Shown: positions 11,594 to 48,999, counted from the first letter of the stretch. The stretch is DNA of 64,000 bases from an uncultured Cytophagales bacterium (GCA_963761725.1 CAVXHP010000006.1:637534-701533); one strand, 5' to 3'. Notes: a model not told the origin generated them from the letters alone. A program made the numbers and translations.

Positions 11594-12181
11594 TTATGAA
11601 TCTGCAAAATTTATAGTATATTTTTTTCCAAACTGTGCTAATATCTCTAAAACGGCTTTTTCAAGTGTTTTTACATTTGTCCAAGCTGCTATATCCAACC
11701 AGTAATGTTTAATATGTTTCCATAGCATTTCAATGTAATTTAAGTCTGAACAATAAGAAGGAAGGAATTGAATGAATACATTTTTTTCTTTCCATTTTTT
11801 TATTGCTTCGTCCACTTTATGATTTCTGTGAGAACTAGCTCTATCTAAAATCAATATTATTTTCTGTCCTTTTGCTCGTTTTTCAATAAAATCATCTATA
11901 CAAACGATAAATGTATCTGCGTCCATAGCTTGATAAAATTCATAAAATTCATAAAATTCACTTTCATTATTCGTACGCATAAATCCTAAAATATTAGCTC
12001 CTCTAGCTCGTTGAGCAGGTAAAAACACCTTTTTAAGTGCTTCAGTAGCTTTTTCTTGCCAACCATACATACTATTAGGATTGAGATGAAAACTACTTTC
12101 ATCACTAAACCAAACTTCAACTTCTCCTTGAGTTTCTTGATTGAGCCACCATGCAATTTCAGATTTAAAAAAATCGTGCAT
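11594..12181 (-). CDS. IS630-family transposase, DDE_3 catalytic part (OrfB)
   Basis: DDE_3 signature DESSFHLNP...ILDRASSH...FLPSYCSDLNYIEMLW, typical of the IS630/Tc1-mariner DD(34)E transposases. Confidence 0.8.
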   Translation of the reverse strand: MHDFFKSEIAWWLNQETQGEVEVWFSDESSFHLNPNSMYGWQEKATEALKKVFLPAQRARGANILGFMRTNNESEFYEFYEFYQAMDADTFIVCIDDFIEKRAKGQKIILILDRASSHRNHKVDEAIKKWKEKNVFIQFLPSYCSDLNYIEMLWKHIKHYWLDIAAWTNVKTLEKAVLEILAQFGKKYTINFADS

Positions 12182-12201
12182 CCATTCGTCTCGTTGAGAT
12201 T

Positions 12202-12636
12202 TTAATGATTTTTGTATTCGTCTCCAGCTCCAATTCTTTTTTTTAAAAAGCGTTTGAGGACAGAGGGATTGGTTTCAATTTGATGTTCTTCTTTCAATAA
12301 AACAACAGTTCTTTTTAAATTTTGAGGTGTATTTTTTACACACTCTAAAATAATATCTTCATTCTCAACAGATAAGCTACTTTGAGAATGAGCCATGTTT
12401 TTATCTAAAAGACCCAAACAACCCATTGATTCATACTTATCAAACCAACTTTTTATGCTATTTTCACTCACATCAAATTGTATGGAAAGCTCCTTAATAG
12501 TCAATCTATGTTTGGAGCTTAAATAAATAGAACTAAATCGTTTACGTTCTCTTTCTAAGAGTTTTATATCTGTACTAGATAAATAACGGCGAAGTTCTTG
12601 TTCTTGAAAAATACTTAGAGTAGCTATGAAACGCAT
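12202..12636 (-). CDS. IS630-family transposase, N-terminal HTH part (OrfA)
   Basis: Winged-helix/HTH-like N-terminal region. Ends at a T8A5 run (TTTTTTTTAAAAA, 12238-12250). Confidence 0.7.
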   Translation of the reverse strand: MRFIATLSIFQEQELRRYLSSTDIKLLERERKRFSSIYLSSKHRLTIKELSIQFDVSENSIKSWFDKYESMGCLGLLDKNMAHSQSSLSVENEDIILECVKNTPQNLKRTVVLLKEEHQIETNPSVLKRFLKKRIGAGDEYKNH

Positions 12637-14964: not shown

Positions 14965-15244
14965 CAATATGAGTGTCATTAATTCAATTTAAAATAGCTC
15001 TTCATTAGCTATAGAGTAGCATAACCTTTAGCTTCGGTGACTCGCTGCTCTTCGGGTGTAGAAAGGAATAGAAAATTAATTTTAAAAGCTACAGAGTAGC
15101 GTAACCTTGTTTTTAATTCTAATTTTCTCGCAAATCACAGAGTTTCGCTACTCTGTAGCTCTAATAAAGCTGTTCATAATGTTCTACCAAGGTTACGTTG
15201 CTCTGCAACTGAAAACCAAATACTTAAAAATGACACTCATATTG
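14965..15244. mobile_element. MITE-like element copy 1 (280 bp): 16-bp perfect TIRs CAATATGAGTGTCATT/AATGACACTCATATTG, TSD TTATTT
   Basis: Perfect TIRs. Flanking 6-bp direct duplication (14959-14964 and 15245-15250). Internal complementary modules AGCTACAGAGTAGCGTAACC / CGCTACTCTGTAGCT. Near-identical to copy 3. Confidence 0.8.
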
Positions 15245-16479: not shown

Positions 16480-16543
16480 AGCTGACACTTTCCAAGTGTC
16501 AGAATGTGATATGTATTTTATTGACACTTGGAAAGTGTCGGCT
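16480..16543. promoter_or_regulatory. Inverted repeat with internally palindromic 23-bp arms (AGCTGACACTTTCCAAGTGTCAG ... TTGACACTTGGAAAGTGTCGGCT) immediately upstream of the next gene
   Basis: Each arm is a 9-bp stem hairpin with a 3-nt loop (TCC vs GGA). Arms are reverse complements separated by an 18-nt AT-rich spacer. Confidence 0.45.
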
Positions 16544-16559
16544 ACTTTTGAATTATTTT

Positions 16560-18209
16560 ATGACAAAATTGAAGATGCGTCTTTTACGCTTTCGTGTGTG
16601 GTTTCAAAATCAATGGAAAAGCCGTTCTCAAAAGGAAAAATATACGGTCGGAATGGCTGGACTTTTGGGTGTTTTGCTAATTTTTGCAGTCGCTTTTGTG
16701 ATTTGGAATACGAATAGAGAAGCCTCTGTTTGGGAACTTGTGCCTAATGATGCCATTTTGGTTTTGGAAACTACGGAAGCACAGCGAATGAGAGAAAAAA
16801 TTGATTCCCTTCCCTTTTGGCAGCCTTTCAAAAATTTGCCTTATCTTCAATCCTATCACTCACGCAAAACGGTTTTGGATTCTGTTGGTAGAGATTCTTT
16901 AGATATTATGAATTATCTAAAAGGCAGGAAAATATATGTTTCATTGCATCAAACTTCACGTACAAGTGCTGATATTATGTTTTTTGTTCCGATGTCTTTG
17001 CAATCAAGGATTATAAATAGTCTATCCAAAAAATTACAAAAAGATATTCCTTTTACACATTCAGAGCGTCTCTACAATGAAATTACGGTTCACGAGCTAA
17101 AATATGAATATGAAAAGACCGATAAAGATGGAAATATAGAAGCTAGAAAAAACTCAAATCGCAAAAACGAAACGGAAAGCGTAATTTTTACTTATGTAAT
17201 CTACAAAAACTTTTTTATAGGAAGTTATACACCTTTTTTGGTAGAAGATGCTGTTCGTAAAATAGCAAATAATGAAGAGACGCCTTTTTTTAAAGAAAAT
17301 AAAGACCTTCTCAAACTCACAAAAATAGAAGATGACGATGCAAACCTATATGTTTCGGCTTCACAAATTCCAAAACTTTTTTCCCTTTTTACGGAGGAAG
17401 AAAACACAGCTCTACTTTCTAGTTTTGGTAATTGGGCAAAATCAGCTATGCTTGATGTTTCCTTGAAGGAACATTTACTTTTATTAAATGGCTATGTTTT
17501 GACGCAAGAAGAAGGAACAGAAAGAGATTATTTGTCTATTTTAGAAACTCAAAAATTGATTGATTTTATTGATTTACAGCAATTTATCCCTCAAGAAACC
17601 GCTCTTTTGTATAGAATTGGACTTTCAGAACCCGAAAAGTATTTTAATGAATTAGAAAAATATAGAAAAGAATATTTACCAAGACAGATTGAAGCAAAGG
17701 AAACTTTGATTGATAATTATAGCTTCTCACCTACTCGTTTTTTGGATAATCTAGGAAATGAAATTGCTGTTGCTGTCTTGGAAATGCCAGAAAACCGAAA
17801 AAACCCAGAAAAATTAGCCTTCCTAAAGATAAAATCAGAAGACGGACAAACCGAAAAATACGAACAAAAAGCAGTCGCCTTATTAAAACAACTTGCCGAA
17901 AATTCATTGGTACAAGTAAAAAGTGAAGATGGTAAAGAAAATGAAACCAAACCATTGACAGAAATCTATGAAGAACTTCCAATTACACGTATTGAAGTAG
18001 CAGATTTTCCCAAAAAGATGTTTGGAGAAGGTTTTAGTGGATTTTCGCAGTCTTATTACACTGTTTTGGAAAGTAAATATATTGTGATTGGAAGTAGTTT
18101 TCAGGCTATTCAAAAATTGATTGATGATTATAAAAATGAACGTGTTTGGGGAAAACTAGTCAGGCAAAGACAGTTTTTCGAACAAATCGGAACTCGTTCG
18201 AACAGTTAG
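16560..18209 (+). CDS. Hypothetical membrane-anchored protein (single N-terminal TM, large extracytoplasmic domain)
   Basis: The ORF-track start (GTG at 16506) lies within the palindrome, so the ATG at 16560 is preferred. TM YTVGMAGLLGVLLIFAVAFVIWN. No recognisable catalytic motifs. Confidence 0.45.
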   Translation: MTKLKMRLLRFRVWFQNQWKSRSQKEKYTVGMAGLLGVLLIFAVAFVIWNTNREASVWELVPNDAILVLETTEAQRMREKIDSLPFWQPFKNLPYLQSYHSRKTVLDSVGRDSLDIMNYLKGRKIYVSLHQTSRTSADIMFFVPMSLQSRIINSLSKKLQKDIPFTHSERLYNEITVHELKYEYEKTDKDGNIEARKNSNRKNETESVIFTYVIYKNFFIGSYTPFLVEDAVRKIANNEETPFFKENKDLLKLTKIEDDDANLYVSASQIPKLFSLFTEEENTALLSSFGNWAKSAMLDVSLKEHLLLLNGYVLTQEEGTERDYLSILETQKLIDFIDLQQFIPQETALLYRIGLSEPEKYFNELEKYRKEYLPRQIEAKETLIDNYSFSPTRFLDNLGNEIAVAVLEMPENRKNPEKLAFLKIKSEDGQTEKYEQKAVALLKQLAENSLVQVKSEDGKENETKPLTEIYEELPITRIEVADFPKKMFGEGFSGFSQSYYTVLESKYIVIGSSFQAIQKLIDDYKNERVWGKLVRQRQFFEQIGTRSNS

Positions 18210-18222
18210 TGTAATTGTAGAT

Positions 18223-19503
18223 TTGCCTCGCTCTTGGAATTGGCTTATGACAAATATTTCTCCAGAATGGCAAAAGACGTTTGAAGCCTATAAATACGAT
18301 CTTTTGAAAGTAGAGTTTTTGGCGTGGCAAGCAGAAGGAGAAGAAAAGCGTTTTGCTAGTTCGATTATTTTCCAACAACAAAAAACAGCTGAATTAGTAG
18401 CTCAAAGCAAGAAAGAAGAAGCCAAAACGATTTTTAAAAGTAGATTAGAAAGTCCTCCCTATTTGGTTAGAAATCATTTGGATAGAAGTCAGGAAGTGTT
18501 GGTTCAAGATGAAAAAGATATGTTGTATTTGGTTTCGAAGGAAGGAAAAATACTTTGGAATTATTATCTAAATGGAACAATGCGACCACAAGTTTATCAA
18601 ATTGATGCTTATAAAAATGGAAAATTGCAGTATTTGATTGCTACGCCTACAAAGGTTTATTTGATTGACCGTTTGGGAAGAGCAGTTTCTGGTTTTCCGA
18701 TTTGGTTTCCAGAAAACACATTTATTACGCATCTTTCAGTCATTGATTATGACAATTCAAAGAATTATAGAATTAGTGTAGCTACTAGTCAGGGCAATGT
18801 TTATTTATACGACAAAACGGGTCAGAGTTTACCAGGCTGGCAACCTCGTAAGGTTGGCATGGCTCTTTCTGCTCCTTTAGAACACGTTCGGGCAGGAAAT
18901 AGAGATGCCATGATTGCGATTGAACAAAACGGAATTGTCAATTTACTAAAACGAAATTCTCAAAGTTATTCCAATTTTCCACTCAATTTTAGTTCGGATA
19001 TTACCAATGATTTTCATGTAGATTATGGCAACACACTTTCCACAACAGAAGTAAGTATGCTGACCGAAGCTGGCGAACTAATTCGTTTTAATTTGGAGGG
19101 AAAAATAGTAGATAGAAAATTCTTTGAGAGAGGAGAACAAGGTGCAATTTTTACGCTTGCAGCCGACAAACAGCGTGAACAAAATTTTGTAATTGCACGA
19201 CAAGACAGCAAAAAACTAACGCTTTATTCGTCGGAAGAAGAACTCTTGTTTTCTAAAAATTATGACAATGAAGGAACAAAACTAATTCAATATTTCAATT
19301 TTGGAGCAAGTATAGAAGTCATTGCTGTTACAGATATGCACGCACAAAAAACCTATCTCTATTACACTAACGGAACAATGATAGGAGGAAAACCAATACA
19401 AAGTAACACAACGATTGCACTTTTTTATTCGGAACAAACGAGCCTTTTTACGCTTTACAGAACACTTGACAATGAATGTCAGAAACTGGTTTTTGGGAGG
19501 TAA
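18223..19503 (+). CDS. Hypothetical protein with beta-propeller-like (PQQ/WD-like) repeats; possibly the continuation of the preceding gene via a frameshift
   Basis: Track start is TTG, 13 nt after the stop of the previous ORF in another frame (alternative ATG at 18247). Recurrent beta-strand repeats (LYLVSKEGKILWNY, VYLIDRLGRAVSGFP, GNVYLYDKTGQSLPGW). Confidence 0.4.
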   Translation: MPRSWNWLMTNISPEWQKTFEAYKYDLLKVEFLAWQAEGEEKRFASSIIFQQQKTAELVAQSKKEEAKTIFKSRLESPPYLVRNHLDRSQEVLVQDEKDMLYLVSKEGKILWNYYLNGTMRPQVYQIDAYKNGKLQYLIATPTKVYLIDRLGRAVSGFPIWFPENTFITHLSVIDYDNSKNYRISVATSQGNVYLYDKTGQSLPGWQPRKVGMALSAPLEHVRAGNRDAMIAIEQNGIVNLLKRNSQSYSNFPLNFSSDITNDFHVDYGNTLSTTEVSMLTEAGELIRFNLEGKIVDRKFFERGEQGAIFTLAADKQREQNFVIARQDSKKLTLYSSEEELLFSKNYDNEGTKLIQYFNFGASIEVIAVTDMHAQKTYLYYTNGTMIGGKPIQSNTTIALFYSEQTSLFTLYRTLDNECQKLVFGR

Positions 19504-19521
19504 AATAACTATTCTATTTCT

Positions 19522-19544
19522 GTTCTTAGCATCACGCTAAGAAC
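19522..19544. terminator. Hairpin (9-bp stem GTTCTTAGC/GCTAAGAAC) between convergent genes
   Basis: Perfect stem-loop read directly. Lies between the 3' ends of 18223..19503(+) and 19661..23041(-). Confidence 0.45.
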
Positions 19545-19615
19545 CTATAAAACTAAAAGCTTCACGCTGTATTTATTATACGAAATACAAAGCGTGACGC
19601 TTAAATACATTTAGG

Positions 19616-19635
19616 TTCGTAGTGGACACTACGAA
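19616..19635. terminator. Hairpin (TTCGTAG-tggaca-CTACGAA) between convergent genes
   Basis: 7-bp stem with 6-nt loop, 25 nt from the stop of the minus-strand giant gene. Confidence 0.45.
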
Positions 19636-19660
19636 CAGGTGGGATAAAATCTTATAAATC

Positions 19661-22600
19661 CTAACCAATTTTACCTTTTATATATGATTCAAATTCTTCA
19701 AAATTTAGAACATTTTTATTGTTCTGATGCTCCCAAATACTTTTATTAATTTTGTATTTGTAAGTCTGATTTTCAAACTCTAATAGAATATTCTGATTTT
19801 CATTAATTGTTTTATCTAGGAAAAACTCTTCAGTTTCATAATATTTTTCACTTAGTAAAAATTTTATATCAAGTATAAATCTAGCTTTTTGCTTGAAATT
19901 TTCTGGTGTAGAGTCGGAAACATCAGGAAACACACATAGAACATATTCTTCTGTACAAATAACAGCATTTTTTGCTTGAGCCTTTGTCATTAATACATAA
20001 TCTCCTTTCCGACTTCTTGATTTTATTTCTAATCTAATTCCAATTTCCAATAATGAATTTAAAAGCAAAAAATCTTGTCCATTATCTTCAACTTTTGCAT
20101 TTGAACCTGTAATAGATTGAAATATATTTTCCACAGTCTTTCCTAAATTCCTATAAAATTTGGCATTTTGTATTTTTTCATCTTCTTTCTCTAAACTTTT
20201 CATTATAACTTCAATCAGTGGTTTTCTATCTTTATCATCTTGTTTCTTTATCACTTCAGTAATTTGTGATAATTCGTTCAAATATCCACTATAAATAATA
20301 TTGCCAGACTTTTCTTTTTCTTCAATAGTTAAAGTATTGTAAGCAATTCCTGCTCTTAATTTAAAAAACTTTGGAAAATAATCTTCTAATCTTTTATTAT
20401 TCCAAAAATCTGTTTTTTGCATTTGGCTTTTCTTAGAAATCCAATTATCCAACTTTCTAATATTTTGCTTTATATCTGGCTCTGTATTATCTCTAAGTTC
20501 CATAACAGTTTCATCAAGCTTTTTACATATATCACTAATATCTAAGGTTTTTTTCAATATTATATTAACTCCATGATGTCTCAATTTATTTTTGAAATCA
20601 AACTCTTTTCCAAAGTCTACTAATATCATTTTTAATTCACTAGGTATTTTTTGACTATTATAATTATTTTTATTCTCTTCCATGTTATAATTGTCTTTAT
20701 CAAAAACATCATTATAAATCTCATCATGATAAGAAAGTAAATTATTATTTTGGTTAGGAATGATTGCGTATTTATCAAGTAATTCCACATAATAGCATTC
20801 TATAAATTCAATTATTTCATTTATACAATAATCTATTTCAGAATCGCCTTCAATACTATAAGGTCTATGAAACAATCTTTCACTAAAATCATTTAAGTTT
20901 GAAATGCCTTCAAGATTATTAGAATTCTTAAAGTTAGATAGAATCTCGTCAATTAATACTTGATTTGCGAATGACCAATCAAAATCTAAAGCATTATCTA
21001 TTATAATTACTTCCTTATTTTTTTCTCTATACATTGTAAAAAAATAACTTGCAATCTTATGTAATTGAGTTTGCTTTTGTTCGTTTTCGCTACTTGAGTA
21101 AGAGTTTAATATAAGTATTGCGTTCAAGAACTGTTCTTTTTCATTTGAGGTAGTTATTTTCTTTCCATTTTCAATTGCTAAACGAATTGAATTAGAAAAC
21201 TGAACAAGAGTTCTTTTATTATCACTAATAAAAGCTTCTTTAAATTCTTCTTTTACTAATATTCTGTTGTAGTCATACTCTTTACCGAAATGCTCACTAC
21301 ATTCAATTAATTTCATTGGTATATTTTCATTCTTAAAAAGTGTATCTTTTTTCTTATAATCTCCATAGTAATTAGGGATTATACAAAAATAATTTTCTGG
21401 TTTTATCAATAAATCTAGCTTGTTACTTTCAATAAATCCTATAACCTTTATTAAAGCAGAACAAGCTGTAATTCTTTGATTATTAAACAAAAATGCTATT
21501 GTGTTTTCAAGTTTTAGGTTTTCTCCCTGTATGATATTTAGCAAATCTTCTATATCAAACTTAATTTCAGCATTCCAGTTCTTATATTCATTTTTATTAG
21601 GATGAATTATGTTTTGCCAAGTATAAGATTGAGACAAAATTGGAATTTTTTCACTAATAAATTCATTACATAATTCCCAAAAATGTTTATACTCTGCTTC
21701 TATTTCATAAATAGGAAAAAGAGTATTAATTGGTTTAATATTTTTATTTCCTTTTGATGGTTTTACAATTTCAGACTCAAGTATTGTTGTTCTTATTTTT
21801 CTCTGAATATCTCTAAACCATTCTTTATCAACATTTTTAGGAGTATTCGTTTTTGCTAATAATTCTATATTTTTCCAGTCCTTTTCTATACCATGAGACA
21901 GTATCGAAAGATAAAGTTCAACTCCCTGCTCATAAATTGATTTATTTAATTTGGCTTTTTTTATAGCAATATCATTTTCTTGTAAATCTTCATTTGATTG
22001 AATGATCAAACTATCTCTTGGTTCAGTAGGATTAAAAAGAGGACTATTAATTATGACAGGAAAATCAAACTTTATATCACTTATCAAGGGAAAAGAGAGA
22101 AATTGGGTGGAAATATTATCATCAATAAATTCTAAAGAAATTGTGCCATTTTCTTGTACTGAAATAGGAATAGCAACTTGAACTATATTGTTTTTTGATG
22201 ATGCTACTACTATTTTTACAGATTTTTCGTTTTCCAATATTTCTATTATATTAATTCCTTCTCTTAAATTGTCAGATTTCTTTTCATAAGAAGTGATCTG
22301 CCCGTCGTTATCTATTTCGATTGATTTTATTGAATCTACAAAAGCTAGTGTATAATAAACTGAATTTTGTAGATTATTTATTCCTTTTAATGCAATTCTA
22401 TGTGCTGATTCTTTACCATTGAATTTGTATTTAAATTTTGTGAAATACTTTCTTTCTTCAAATCCTATTATGTAATCTGACGAATTCAGATTTTCAATCA
22501 CATCTAATACCTCAAAGGAAGCATTTACTTTTTTTTCCATGTCAAAAAGATTATCAGCTTCTCTATCTAAGTTAATTTCTAATTTAGAATAGTTTTTTTT

Positions 22601-23041
22601 ATCATCAGCATAAATAGTTTCAAGTTCTATATTGTAGCTTAATAAGTATGTTGTCATAAATCCTGTTCCAAACTTCCCAGTTTTATTTAAATACTCTTCT
22701 ATTTCTTGTTCTGTTAATTCTTCACTTATTATAGCTTTTTTAAAAAAAGAAAATTTATCATCATCACTAAAATTTGGTGTTTTTGATGAATCTTTTGTTA
22801 GTAGACTTATCAAATCATTTTGGTTAAAAGGTTTACCGTTATGAGAAAATTCAATATACTCAGGTGTTAGCTTTATTTTTATATCGACACCCTTAGGAAA
22901 TGAACAGTCTTTAGCATTTTGAAGTAACTCCCATATCCAACGTTGTGAAGCATTTATATTTGGTTCTGCAAAATCAGCTAAAATATCTTTTGCTATTTTT
23001 CTTGGATAACCTTCTAACAATTTTTTATATATTGATGACAT
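19661..23041 (-). CDS. Large (1126 aa) protein with N-terminal sacsin/NOV-like GHKL ATPase (HATPase_c_3) domain; remainder uncharacterised
   Basis: Bergerat-fold motifs: N-box IWELLQNAKDC, G1 HNGKPF, G2 TGKFGTGFMTTYLLSYNIELETIY. Very Asn/Lys/Ile-rich, AT-rich coding sequence atypical of the surrounding genes. Confidence 0.6.
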   Translation of the reverse strand: MSSIYKKLLEGYPRKIAKDILADFAEPNINASQRWIWELLQNAKDCSFPKGVDIKIKLTPEYIEFSHNGKPFNQNDLISLLTKDSSKTPNFSDDDKFSFFKKAIISEELTEQEIEEYLNKTGKFGTGFMTTYLLSYNIELETIYADDKKNYSKLEINLDREADNLFDMEKKVNASFEVLDVIENLNSSDYIIGFEERKYFTKFKYKFNGKESAHRIALKGINNLQNSVYYTLAFVDSIKSIEIDNDGQITSYEKKSDNLREGINIIEILENEKSVKIVVASSKNNIVQVAIPISVQENGTISLEFIDDNISTQFLSFPLISDIKFDFPVIINSPLFNPTEPRDSLIIQSNEDLQENDIAIKKAKLNKSIYEQGVELYLSILSHGIEKDWKNIELLAKTNTPKNVDKEWFRDIQRKIRTTILESEIVKPSKGNKNIKPINTLFPIYEIEAEYKHFWELCNEFISEKIPILSQSYTWQNIIHPNKNEYKNWNAEIKFDIEDLLNIIQGENLKLENTIAFLFNNQRITACSALIKVIGFIESNKLDLLIKPENYFCIIPNYYGDYKKKDTLFKNENIPMKLIECSEHFGKEYDYNRILVKEEFKEAFISDNKRTLVQFSNSIRLAIENGKKITTSNEKEQFLNAILILNSYSSSENEQKQTQLHKIASYFFTMYREKNKEVIIIDNALDFDWSFANQVLIDEILSNFKNSNNLEGISNLNDFSERLFHRPYSIEGDSEIDYCINEIIEFIECYYVELLDKYAIIPNQNNNLLSYHDEIYNDVFDKDNYNMEENKNNYNSQKIPSELKMILVDFGKEFDFKNKLRHHGVNIILKKTLDISDICKKLDETVMELRDNTEPDIKQNIRKLDNWISKKSQMQKTDFWNNKRLEDYFPKFFKLRAGIAYNTLTIEEKEKSGNIIYSGYLNELSQITEVIKKQDDKDRKPLIEVIMKSLEKEDEKIQNAKFYRNLGKTVENIFQSITGSNAKVEDNGQDFLLLNSLLEIGIRLEIKSRSRKGDYVLMTKAQAKNAVICTEEYVLCVFPDVSDSTPENFKQKARFILDIKFLLSEKYYETEEFFLDKTINENQNILLEFENQTYKYKINKSIWEHQNNKNVLNFEEFESYIKGKIG

Positions 23042-23202
23042 TTGAATTTAGTTTTATAGATTACACAAAATTTTAACTACATAAAAATCTACCACCAATT
23101 CAAAAAAAAGAACCAATAGTGTTTACAATATACAAAAAATAAGTATTTACACAGAATAAAATTTGGTTGTAATTTATCTTTTGTAAAATATTACAATGTT
23201 GG

Positions 23203-24322
23203 TTAAATAATTACAAACTCTCTAAAATTATCTCTATGTATTAGTTTTTCTTCTGCGTTGTATTTTTCTATAAATGTTTTGGGTAAGTTTACTTTCTTTT
23301 TTGGATTCCATTTAAACTCATAACCATATAATTTTTGATTCGTACTTTCTACATAATCAATTTCTTGTTGTTGAGTTGTTCGCCAAAAATAAGGTTGTGA
23401 TAAAGTAAGCTTATATTTATTTTGTTTCATTCTTTCCGAAATCAAGAAATTTTCCCACAAAGCACCTACATCTGTACGCAAACTCAAATCAGTAAAATTT
23501 CCTATAATCATGTTTCTAATTCCATTATCATAAAAATAAATTTTCTTGCTCTTTTTTCAGTTCATTTCGCACGTTTTTACTATAACTTCCCAACCTAAAT
23601 ATAACATATCCCTTTTCCAAAATCTCAATATATCTCTGAATTGTATTTCTATCTACTCCAATAAGTTGGCTCAATTCATTATAATTGACCTCACTACCTA
23701 TCTGTAAGGCTAAAGCCTGAACCAATTTTTCTAATACTTCTGGTTTTCTTATTTCTGCATAAGAAAGAACATCTCTATACAAATAACTATTGACTAGATT
23801 TTTCAAAATCTCTCTTTCTTCTCCATCATTATTAATCACATCTGGATAAAAACCATATATCAGTCTATTTTCTAGCTGTTGTTGTGCCTGTAAATAGCCA
23901 ATATTATTTTGGTACTCTTCCCAACTAATCGGAAATAGTTCATATTCCCATTTTCTTCCTGTCAATGGTTCACTTAGTTCATTGAAAAGAATAAAAGACG
24001 ACGAACCACTAATCCATAATTGAACATCTTTAAATTGATCTATAATAATTTTAAGTGTCAGATCTATTCCTTTGATGCGTTGAGCTTCATCTATAAAAAC
24101 TATTTTTTTTCCTCCAATCAGATTCTTAATTTTTTCTGTATTAGGAGTATCAAGAATAGATCGAACAGTTGGGTCATCTCCATCAAAGAATTGATAATCC
24201 AAACCTTTTAGTTGTTCCAAAATAAAAGTTGTCTTTCCTACTTGGCGAGGTCCTACTATTATAATAGCCTTTCCCTTCCCTATCTTACTTATAACTTGTT
24301 TTTTTATCAGTCTTTCAATCAT
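23203..24322 (-). pseudogene. COG1373-type AAA+ ATPase (AAA_14 + DUF4143), split into two ORFs (23528-24322 and 23203-23511)
   Basis: N-terminal Walker A GPRQVGKTT. The 102-aa downstream ORF matches the DUF4143 C-terminal region (WENFLISE). Combined ~366 aa is the typical length. Confidence 0.65.
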
Positions 24323-24437: not shown

Positions 24438-25403
24438 TTAAATCTTAATCACTTTTACGGTAAATAAAACATCAATAATTGCTAAAAATAAAGTTGCATA
24501 TAAGAAGTAATAATATTTATTTGTCGTTGTGTCTATTTGTTTTACACCTCTTACTTCTCCTTGAATAGATTGAATGGCATTTATGAGTCGCTGAACATCA
24601 TTTTGAGTTTCTCCAATTTCGTAATATTTTCCTCCTGTTTGGCTTGCTAAATCTTGTAAGTCAGACGGATTTAGTTTTGTAATAATCGTTTCTCCATTTC
24701 TATCGTCTTTCTTAAAACCACTACCAGATGGTATTTTTCCACCTTGTTCTGTCCCGATTCCTAATGCAAAGAGTTTGATTCCCAAATCTTCAATTTCATC
24801 TATTGCATCGCCTGTTTCTTCTCCAAAATCTTCTCCATCACTTATCATAATAATGATTTTCGAATTCGTTTTGGTATCTTTATCACTTTCAAATTTTTCT
24901 AAAGCCATTTGTAAAGGAGGTGCAAAATCAGTTCCTCCACTGGGTACAAGTCCAGTATTCAGAGATTCTAATATTAATCGCAATGCACTTTGGTCACTTG
25001 TAAGAGGACATTGAAGAAATGCTTCCGATGAAAAAATGATAATTCCTTGCCTGTCAGAAGAAAAAGCTGTCGTAATTGCTTTAAGTTCGTGCTTGATACG
25101 CTCCATTCTGGAAGGCTGAATATCTATTGCATCCATTGAGCGAGATAAATCTACCAAATAAAAAATATCTTTTCCTATACTTTTTACTTCTTGCTTCGTT
25201 TCTCCAAAAGAAGGACCAAGAAGAGCCAAAATGAGCAAAATAAAATAGCTGCTTCGAAGCACAAATTTAAGCCAGACATATTTTGAAGAAGTGCGTAAGT
25301 ATTTTGCTTTTTTGTGTGTTCTGAAAATATACAAACCATATAAAAGTAAAAACACACAAATAAATACAGTTTCAAGAATGCCTAAGTCGTTGTTCCAAAT
25401 CAT
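24438..25403 (-). CDS. von Willebrand factor type A (vWA) domain protein, BatA-like, N-terminal TM
   Basis: vWA MIDAS motif DLSRSMDAIDIQPSRMERIK, ISDGEDFG. The track start (25445) is the ATG inside the MITE TIR; the start at 25403 (MIWNND...) is preferred. Confidence 0.7.
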   Translation of the reverse strand: MIWNNDLGILETVFICVFLLLYGLYIFRTHKKAKYLRTSSKYVWLKFVLRSSYFILLILALLGPSFGETKQEVKSIGKDIFYLVDLSRSMDAIDIQPSRMERIKHELKAITTAFSSDRQGIIIFSSEAFLQCPLTSDQSALRLILESLNTGLVPSGGTDFAPPLQMALEKFESDKDTKTNSKIIIMISDGEDFGEETGDAIDEIEDLGIKLFALGIGTEQGGKIPSGSGFKKDDRNGETIITKLNPSDLQDLASQTGGKYYEIGETQNDVQRLINAIQSIQGEVRGVKQIDTTTNKYYYFLYATLFLAIIDVLFTVKVIKI

Positions 25404-25430
25404 AGTACAATTAAAATCTATTTGAAATAT

Positions 25431-25671
25431 CAATATGAGTGTCATTTTGAGTCATTGACTTTTAGTTGCAGCCGCAACGTAACCTTGGTAGAAGCTCAAA
25501 AGCGTATTTCAATAGAGCTACAGAGTAGCGAAACTTGCAATTGGGCAATTAAGAATAAAGTTACGCTACGTTGTAGCTTTTCAAATCAATTTTATTTTTG
25601 TTCTACCAAGGTAAAGCTACTCTGTAGCTAATAAATGCCTATTTTGATTTCTGCCAATGACACTCATATTG
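25431..25671. mobile_element. MITE-like element copy 2 (241 bp, inverted orientation relative to copy 1), TSD AAATAT
   Basis: Same perfect 16-bp TIRs. Flanking direct repeat AAATAT (25425-25430 / 25672-25677). Internal AGCTACAGAGTAGCG and GGTTACG..GCAACT modules. Confidence 0.8.
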
Positions 25672-48408: not shown

Positions 48409-48688
48409 CAATATGAGTGTCATTAATTCAATTCAAAATAGCTCTTCATTAGCTACAGAGTAGCATAACCTTTAGCTTCGGTGACTCGCTGCTCTTCGGG
48501 TGTAGAAAGGAATAAAAAATTAATTTTAAAAGCTACAGAGTAGCGTAACCTTGTTTTTAATTTTAATTTTCTCGCAAATCACAGAGTTTCGCTACTCTGT
48601 AGCTCTAATAAAGCTGTTTGTAACGTTCTACCAAGGTTACGTTGCTCTGCAACTGAAAATCAAATACTTAAAAATGACACTCATATTG
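48409..48688. mobile_element. MITE-like element copy 3 (280 bp), TSD AATCATT
   Basis: Perfect TIRs. 7-bp flanking duplication (48402-48408 / 48689-48695). Differs from copy 1 by a few SNPs. Confidence 0.8.
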
Positions 48689-48747: not shown

Positions 48748-48999
48748 CAATATGAGTGTCATTGGCGAAAATCGAAACAAGTATTTGTTAGCTACAGAGT
48801 AGCGTAACCTTTGTAGAAAAAGAATAAGAATTGATTTGAAAAGCTACAGCGTAGCGTAACCTTATTTTTAATTCTAATTTCATGAAAGTTGCAAGGTTTC
48901 GCTACGCTGTAGCTCTAATGAAGGTTATTATTTACTGTTCTACCAAGGTTACGTTGCGATGCAACTAAAACTCAATACTTAGAAATGACACTCATATTG
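48748..48999. mobile_element. MITE-like element copy 4 (252 bp), TSD ATTTTA, 59 bp downstream of copy 3
   Basis: Perfect TIRs. Flanking ATTTTA (48742-48747 / 49000-49005). Internal hairpin carries a compensatory pair change (CAGCGTAGCG/CGCTACGCTG vs CAGAGTAGCG/CGCTACTCTG in copy 1). Confidence 0.8.

Follow-up and report, generated by a model that had tools for sequence, protein, structure and literature searches.

Tiamat is a catalogued defence system without a published mechanism or a sequence-detectable relative in the PDB, and its sole component, TmtA, is the closest described counterpart of the protein considered here. The system has been attributed to Millman et al. 2022, with a mechanism given as uncharacterised (PMC12926258), and the name Tiamat is absent from the text of the Millman preprint. 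Also, it is counted with the single-gene systems of PD-(D/E)xK structure (bioRxiv 10.1101/2024.10.26.620412), it is routinely detected by PADLOC in islands of Flavobacterium and Pseudomonas, and its hidden Markov models (HMMs) match plant genes too (PMC12409356), the latter being consistent with a relationship to NO VEIN (NOV). The DNA analysed (the window) is a stretch of 64,000 nt from an uncultured Cytophagales bacterium (GCA_963761725.1, CAVXHP010000006.1:637534-701533) whose tmtA locus belongs to a Bernardetia (Cytophagales) genome, as judged by the cluster members of the proteins encoded beside it. It encodes a 1126-aa protein that, judging by a full-length profile match, is very probably TmtA, its gene being a Tiamat-family defence gene.

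Other described proteins share one part or another of this architecture. TmtA has the sacsin-like head recognised by NCBIfam and a NOV_C-type tail as in NO VEIN, whereas sacsin ends in DnaJ and HEPN domains instead of NOV_C (PMC3710099) and contains three repeats of the ATPase unit. Moreover, in MutL and in the prokaryotic MORC-like ATPases of restriction-modification (R-M)-type systems, a Bergerat ATPase with its transducer is combined with an endonuclease in one polypeptide or operon; however, they have no sequence relation to TmtA beyond the GHKL fold, their nuclease is of another fold, and TmtA bears no sign of mismatch or methylation sensing. The metal site of MutL is DQHA(X)2E(X)4E and not PD-(D/E)xK. 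Finally, the Holliday-junction resolvases Hjc and RecU and the type II restriction endonucleases (REases) resemble the C-terminal domain of TmtA at 9-18% identity only, the likeness to junction resolvases being one of fold, and differ from it in that the TmtA domain forms one protein with a 940-aa ATPase; the fusellovirus nuclease D212 is listed alongside this domain.

Family membership and the tmtA gene

The gene and the region that follows its 3' end are located as follows:

19661..23041 including the stop codon, minus strand: tmtA, an intact open reading frame (ORF) with an ATG start, 1126 aa
19504..19660, no strand: convergent intergenic region at the right edge of the strain-specific insert, with hairpins at 19522-19544, 19590-19602 and 19615-19636

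The product matches the PADLOC TmtA profile (PDLC03967) from end to end, with an E-value of 1.9e-134 and 448 bits, residues 16-1125 being aligned with profile positions 20-1060 of 1063. In a set of 5.8 billion proteins, 902 relatives were found, including one identical protein and a small group (P0002-P0007) at 53-65% identity; the sub-clade referred to below comprises P0001-P0007, with 53-100% identity to the tmtA product. Many of the 902 relatives, at about 33% identity, bear Pfam PF13020 (DUF3883, the same as NOV_C), and their annotation is often 'DUF3883 domain-containing' or 'sacsin N-terminal ATP-binding-like'. For whole TmtA and for its N- and C-terminal pieces, Pfam returned 0 matches even at E <= 10. 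Neither the family profile nor the first 250 aa had a relative in the PDB by sequence search, and a C-terminal profile gave only spurious matches to designed repeat proteins there. Also, no tmtA homolog was found in the phage collection, and the plasmids searched contained 7 distant homologs only.

In comparison with Tiamat as described, the protein from the window shares the end-to-end profile match, the order of a sacsin-like GHKL head, a long middle region and a C-terminal PD-(D/E)xK domain, the single-gene organisation, and the location in variable or defence contexts. It differs in that the NOV_C variant of the P0001-P0007 sub-clade escapes Pfam and carries an extra tail of about 90 aa, in the E-x-K of this sub-clade, Q-x-K or D-x-K being the form in most close relatives, and in an identity of only about 33% to the PF13020-bearing relatives. 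An earlier reading of the DNA made from the sequence only (the sequence-only reading) had presented the protein as an uncharacterised candidate with no recognisable domain beyond its head. The first part of this description gives way to the full-length match to TmtA of a named system, and the second holds for Pfam but not for NCBIfam, PADLOC, or profile-profile and fold comparisons.

The translation confirms the intact ORF and the motifs quoted for it, ELLQNAKD corresponding to residues 38-45, HNGKPF to residues 67-72 and GKFGTGFMTTYLL to residues 122-134; the stretch RLEIKSRSRKGDYVLM...EEYVLCVFPD is also present in the 1126-aa protein. In a window with a GC content of 31%, tmtA has a GC fraction of 0.256 against an ORF mean of 0.325 (standard deviation, sd, 0.030), its third-codon-position GC (GC3) of 0.166 is the lowest among 45 ORFs, and the Asn, Lys and Ile fraction of its product is 0.319 against 0.227 (sd 0.042). 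The AT-rich island of the sequence-only reading is therefore real, with GC, GC3 and amino acid composition all atypical, although only to a modest or moderate degree. Also, tmtA appears to form its own transcription unit, because a spacer of 160 nt lies upstream, between it and the neighbouring DUF4143 gene, and the convergent spacer downstream holds three hairpins. This downstream region, with a terminator-like site at 19602-19590, is likely the terminator region. A sigma-70 promoter scan scored no better than shuffled sequences, the sigma-70 model being uninformative for Bacteroidota.

Domain architecture of TmtA

From its N- to its C-terminus, TmtA is composed of a GHKL ATPase of sacsin type, a middle domain that resembles Hsp90 and contains an invariant Arg, a helical region of about 600 aa and a PD-(D/E)xK nuclease domain, which are encoded as follows:

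22412..22954, minus strand: sacsin-type GHKL (Bergerat) ATPase domain, about residues 30-210 (NF047352, Foldseek, invariant motifs)
22007..22411, minus strand: beta-rich middle/transducer domain, about residues 211-345, with R342 (AlphaFold2, fold alignments)
20216..22006, minus strand: long, mainly helical central region, about residues 346-942, with no family assignment (AlphaFold2; conserved along the TmtA profile)
19664..20215, minus strand: predicted divergent NOV_C/DUF3883-type PD-(D/E)xK nuclease domain, residues 943-1126 (E971, D990, E1005-x-K1007, Q1022)
20015..20035, minus strand: RLEIKSR, the ExK catalytic strand (E1005, K1007; alignment)

The sacsin-like GHKL N-terminus proposed in the sequence-only reading is confirmed by the NCBIfam model NF047352 (P_loop_sacsin, 'sacsin N-terminal ATP-binding-like'), which matches residues 33-88 at 1.4e-15, and by the Hsp90/TRAP1 fold of this part. 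The Bergerat motifs are E38/N42/D45 (motif I), H67-N68-G69 (motif II), G122/G125/G127 (motif III) and T201 (motif IV). An alignment of 74 homologs shows little or no variation at E38, N42, D45, G122, G125, G127, T201 and R342; the last of these, present in 74/74 sequences, would act as the gamma-phosphate sensor. However, the Asp of motif II that contacts the adenine in canonical GHKL proteins (DxGxG) is replaced by a His (H67), also invariant in 74/74, so that ATP turnover is plausible but unproven. Sacsin is not known to have this Asp either. A first AlphaFold2 model of the full-length protein, built on the 74 homologs, is confident over residues 1-900, with a mean predicted local distance difference test (pLDDT) score of 80, values of about 90 in the middle domain and mostly 85-95 in the helical region. 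Its comparison with the PDB by Foldseek places the N and M domains of TRAP1/Hsp90 on top (E 6e-6, probability 1.0), and next come the ATPase modules of SMCHD1 and of a topoisomerase; the fold matches to TRAP1/Hsp90 thus support a GHKL head followed by a transducer-like middle domain.

For the C-terminal domain, the last 180 or so residues of the sub-clade were misaligned by MAFFT, which left the first model poor over residues 950-1126, and a dedicated profile search and a second AlphaFold2 model were used as a remedy. With the profile, made from the seven sub-clade tails, 129 relatives were recovered at E <= 1e-3 from a set of 1.84 billion representative proteins (the 185-aa nuclease module being common to about 129 clusters at 50% identity), and a GHKL head is present in 60 of the 62 that have at least 800 aa. 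Across a diverse alignment of 37 of these tails, G967, D990, E1005, K1007 and Q1022 are invariant and E971 nearly so. Comparison of the 37-sequence profile with the PF13020-bearing tails by hhalign gave a probability of 91% (E 8.8e-7), with D990 falling on the Y-D of the latter and E1005-x-K1007 on their Q/D/E-x-K; using the 7 sequences only, the result was weak (9.9% probability). Moreover, NOV_C is matched by 26/37 tail relatives at E <= 1, with a best value of 2.5e-7, and the second model of the domain is confident. In the sub-clade the domain is prolonged by a C-terminal extension of about 90 aa, composed of a helix, a beta-hairpin and a helix.

DUF3883 was assigned as a PD-(D/E)xK/REase domain in 2012-2013 (PMC3424549; PMC3710099), and the C-terminus of TmtA is predicted, on these profile and alignment data, to be a NOV_C/DUF3883-type PD-(D/E)xK nuclease whose E-D-ExK-Q site is intact. 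The RLEIKS...YVLCVF stretch, where the sequence-only reading had suspected a hidden effector, comprises two strands of the restriction-endonuclease fold, the catalytic one with ExK and the last one of the core. In this case the expectation of a nuclease was right, the fold and profile comparisons showing a PD-(D/E)xK domain, whereas the alternative of a HEPN effector was not, as no HEPN family (Rx4-6H) is found for TmtA among the Pfam or PADLOC matches and the C-terminal fold is PD-(D/E)xK.

A variable slot in Bernardetia genomes

The position of tmtA was compared with loci from five complete Bernardetia genomes. The features of the window that bear on this comparison are the following:

24438..25445, minus strand: batB-like VWA gene, a conserved flank (Pfam VWA_2, 7e-18; NCBIfam BatB-like, 4e-43, below the family cut-off)
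23203..24322, minus strand: PDC-S01 candidate defence gene, AAA_14 ATPase plus DUF4143 PD-(D/E)xK, frameshifted (Pfam, PADLOC)
23079..23120, minus strand: left edge of the strain-specific insert, where homology to Bernardetia sp. MNP-M8 stops (23079) and which carries the junction motif
16506..19503, plus strand: ortholog of a 980-aa Bernardetia protein, a conserved flank, split into 567 + 426 aa (tblastn)

Nucleotide homology to MNP-M8 covers window positions 25416-23079, that is, the VWA and DUF4143 genes, at 92%, and 19502-16556, the 980-aa gene, at 87%. The strain-specific interval between them (19503-23078, 3.6 kb) contains tmtA only, and in MNP-M8 the same interval is occupied by three other genes, one of them weakly DDE-transposase-like and none with a PADLOC match. 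Strain Wsw4-3y2 has a single 260-aa gene in the slot, and in two further Bernardetia strains the region is rearranged. In B. litoralis DSM 6794 (L085, CP003345.1, 11061-15986) the slot is occupied by genes for a type II REase, two C5 methylases and SoFic (2e-114), with no DUF4143 gene. Orthologs of the 980-aa gene flank the slot in B. litoralis and in locus L087. In three genomes the variable part has, at its left edge, a motif of about 28 nt, ACTATTnGTTCT(6-8)GAATTGrTGGT (window 23091-23120, minus strand; L084, 11203-11230; L085, 11002-11030). This motif follows the DUF4143 gene in two of them and the VWA gene directly in B. litoralis, and it may be a site of recombination, or else a terminator or promoter element that is shared. 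Because the cargo of the interval differs and the junction motif recurs across Bernardetia genomes, the interval from the VWA gene to the 980-aa gene is a small variable defence slot, and tmtA is one of its interchangeable cargos. This fits the atypical composition of the gene and bears out its horizontal acquisition, as anticipated by the sequence-only reading. Scans of the window with Rfam and for tRNAs found nothing, so that no tRNA-linked integration site is present in it.

With respect to the flanks, the VWA gene is 94% identical to its MNP-M8 ortholog. As listed, this ORF encodes 335 aa and exceeds its 321-aa orthologs by 14 codons; its first codons overlap a repeat arm described below, and the internal start is probably the true one. 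The 980-aa protein, conserved in Bernardetia, has no Pfam or PADLOC match; in tblastn, residues 1-547 and 548-980 of the MNP-M8 protein match the window in two frames, the split being due to a 1-nt insertion near 18198-18211 (TCGAACAG vs TCGACAG). In B. litoralis, a 94-aa ORF by SoFic is a duplicate, at 94% identity, of the final 86 codons of the 980-aa gene, which suggests insertion into the 3' end of this gene, and the type II REase is itself split into 237 + 251 aa (profile positions 12-256 and 303-527 of PDLC03402). Also, an independent metagenome contig with an identical tmtA (L001, ENA ERZ25039505 contig_18638), 99.81% identical and different at 20/13,455 positions, has the same split of the 980-aa gene. 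This contig ends at window position 23114, inside the junction motif; an end at the slot edge may reflect strain heterogeneity that breaks the assembly.

The gene that adjoins tmtA on the same strand is, as the sequence-only reading had it, a DUF4143 ATPase gene split by a frameshift, into ORFs 23528..24322 and 23203..23511. Pfam assigns AAA_14 (1.1e-29) and DUF4143 (1.5e-17 and 9.3e-14) to it, and the two ORFs match PADLOC PDC-S01 (PDLC04789) at 1e-107 and 8e-40, over profile positions 1-265 and 273-373 of 375. The split corresponds to a 1-nt insertion at an A-run, at window 23548-23560 (CTGAAAAAAG vs CT-AAAAAAG in the MNP-M8 ortholog), and removal of one base restores an ORF of 372 aa, the length of the intact ortholog; this insertion may be a real mutation or an assembly error. 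PDC-S01 is an abundant, untested single-gene candidate proposed through 'guilt by embedding', with an ATPase fused to a PD-(D/E)xK domain (PMC12988326), and DUF4143 has been placed in the PD-(D/E)xK superfamily (PMC3424549). The neighbour gene shares with it the profile match and this domain pair and differs in being frameshifted.

Elsewhere in the window, a palindromic repeat of 250-310 nt, similar to a miniature inverted-repeat transposable element (MITE), is present in four copies (14965-15244, 25431-25671, 48409-48688 and 48748-48999), with termini AATGACACTCATATTG in inverted orientation and internal AGCTACAGAGTAGCG hairpins. A 10.4-kb segment with tmtA in it lies between two of the copies. 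The copies at 14.96-15.24 and 25.43-25.67 kb were considered as limits of an island and rejected as such, given the two further copies at 48.4-49.0 kb and the breaks of synteny at other positions. One more element is encoded on the minus strand as two ORFs, probably the usual frameshifted arrangement of the IS630 family:

11594-12636, minus strand: IS630-type transposase, with HTH_23 at 12202-12636 and DDE_3 at 11594-12181

Competing readings, mechanism and meaning

The sequence-only reading had joined the GHKL giant and the DUF4143 AAA+ ATPase in one two-gene conflict module. The two genes are indeed adjacent on one strand, 160 nt apart, and both encode proteins with an ATPase, a PD-(D/E)xK domain and a PADLOC match. 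However, a tblastn search with the repaired DUF4143 protein, run on 82 TmtA-relative loci with 10 kb to either side, found no homolog at E < 1 (best E 2.4; 0/82), and the closest homolog of TmtA outside the lineage, at 65% identity, stands alone among unrelated genes, without a DUF4143 neighbour. MNP-M8 has an intact DUF4143 gene at the same place without tmtA, B. litoralis and L087 have neither gene in the slot, and the synteny boundary at 23079 falls between the two genes. Moreover, Tiamat and PDC-S01 are each described as single-gene systems, and here the DUF4143 gene is frameshifted whereas tmtA is intact. A joint module is thus highly improbable, and the DUF4143 gene is a separate single-gene candidate system, independent of tmtA. 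The neighbourhoods of 77 TmtA relatives agree in being heterogeneous: among the two nearest genes per side at 31 loci (117 ORFs), integrases, AAA_21/AAA_15 ATPases, Uma2, ResIII, methylases and GmrSD are frequent, and the PADLOC families found near the relatives are AbiLi, AriA (PARIS-like), MADS, HEC-01 and PDC-S17. In genomic terms tmtA is a single gene with no conserved partner, its function being predicted.

Two further readings concern tmtA itself. In one of them, TmtA would be a housekeeping chaperone or DNA-repair factor of Hsp90/MutL type and not an immune gene: the best fold matches of its first 350-500 or so residues are Hsp90/TRAP1 chaperones, Tiamat HMMs also match plant genes, and, to our knowledge, no antiviral role is established for its eukaryotic relatives NO VEIN and sacsin. 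This reading is very improbable in view of the absence of tmtA from the locus in four other Bernardetia genomes, where R-M, SoFic or other cargo is found instead, of the single-member cluster formed by its protein and its atypical composition, of a predicted nuclease tail with an intact catalytic site, and of the location of relatives among defence and mobile-element genes. In the other, tmtA would be a remnant, decaying or inactive, in an islet that is being degraded, or the surrounding frameshifts would be long-read assembly errors, as a 1-nt insertion splits each of two neighbouring genes and the related contigs have names in the style of long-read assemblers (as inferred from the record names). 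However, tmtA is uninterrupted over 3.4 kb with every family-invariant residue retained, and the split of the 980-aa gene is common to the independent contig that differs at 20 positions, which makes decay or artefact improbable.

The explanation favoured here combines a TmtA of a divergent-nuclease sub-clade, its place as strain-specific cargo, a separate PDC-S01 neighbour and a GHKL-gated nuclease, and as a whole we consider it probable, with good confidence. Several points weigh against it: the membership in Tiamat rests on the PADLOC profile; NOV_C (PF13020) misses TmtA and its C-terminus directly, even at E <= 10, and likewise P0002 and P0005; the sub-clade has its extra tail of about 90 aa; the invariant His in motif II means that ATP binding and hydrolysis are assumed; and the frameshifts in both neighbouring genes hint at a decaying locus or at assembly indel errors. 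Protection against phage by this tmtA is predicted, the activity of the family being attributed in the literature to Millman et al. 2022. Nonetheless, the defence role put forward in the sequence-only reading is supported by the Tiamat match, the predicted nuclease tail, the variable slot and the location of the relatives.

ATP-driven dimerisation is the paradigm for GHKL ATPases. By analogy with MutL, Hsp90, MORC and GyrB, binding of ATP to TmtA would provoke an N-terminal dimerisation or clamping, and the middle and helical regions would transmit the conformational change. Then, the C-terminal nuclease would be licensed to cut DNA on meeting a phage-derived cue (for example, DNA that is foreign or modified, a DNA structure, or a protein of the phage), and the outcome could be destruction of the phage DNA or abortive infection. 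This outline is tentative, its chances as a whole being somewhat short of even. It is unlikely that, in addition, the sub-clade represents a mechanistically distinct Tiamat variant whose tail would serve in target recognition or autoinhibition under the gating of the GHKL clamp, or that the slot, with its junction motif and the duplicated gene 3' end of B. litoralis, is a hotspot of site-specific cargo exchange that needs no integrase nearby.

A different arrangement is observed for distant sacsin-like GHKL proteins of about 860-1030 aa, found in L043, L044, L045, L048, L057, L061, L077 and L081 and apparently without alignment to the TmtA nuclease region. Directly downstream of their genes lies a tightly linked gene whose product joins a Schlafen AlbA_2 domain to an effector that varies, being a CAP12/Pycsar-type TIR (about 1e-39), a TIR_2, a weak HEPN match or a part with no assigned domain. 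The pair looks like a two-gene arrangement with the effector in trans; its identification as Dazbog was rejected, since Dazbog carries DUF262.

Tiamat itself is already named, catalogued and found by standard tools, and what is new here is not a new kind of system but a NOV_C variant invisible to Pfam, which overlooks the nuclease in this sub-clade, together with residue-level predictions and the description of the slot. For this sub-clade, the predicted residues are E38 and N42 in the ATPase, R342, and D990, E1005, K1007 and Q1022 in the nuclease, and these results are useful for annotation and for the design of experiments. Finally, the locus offers a natural case in which tmtA, R-M genes with SoFic, and other cargo replace one another in one chromosomal slot.

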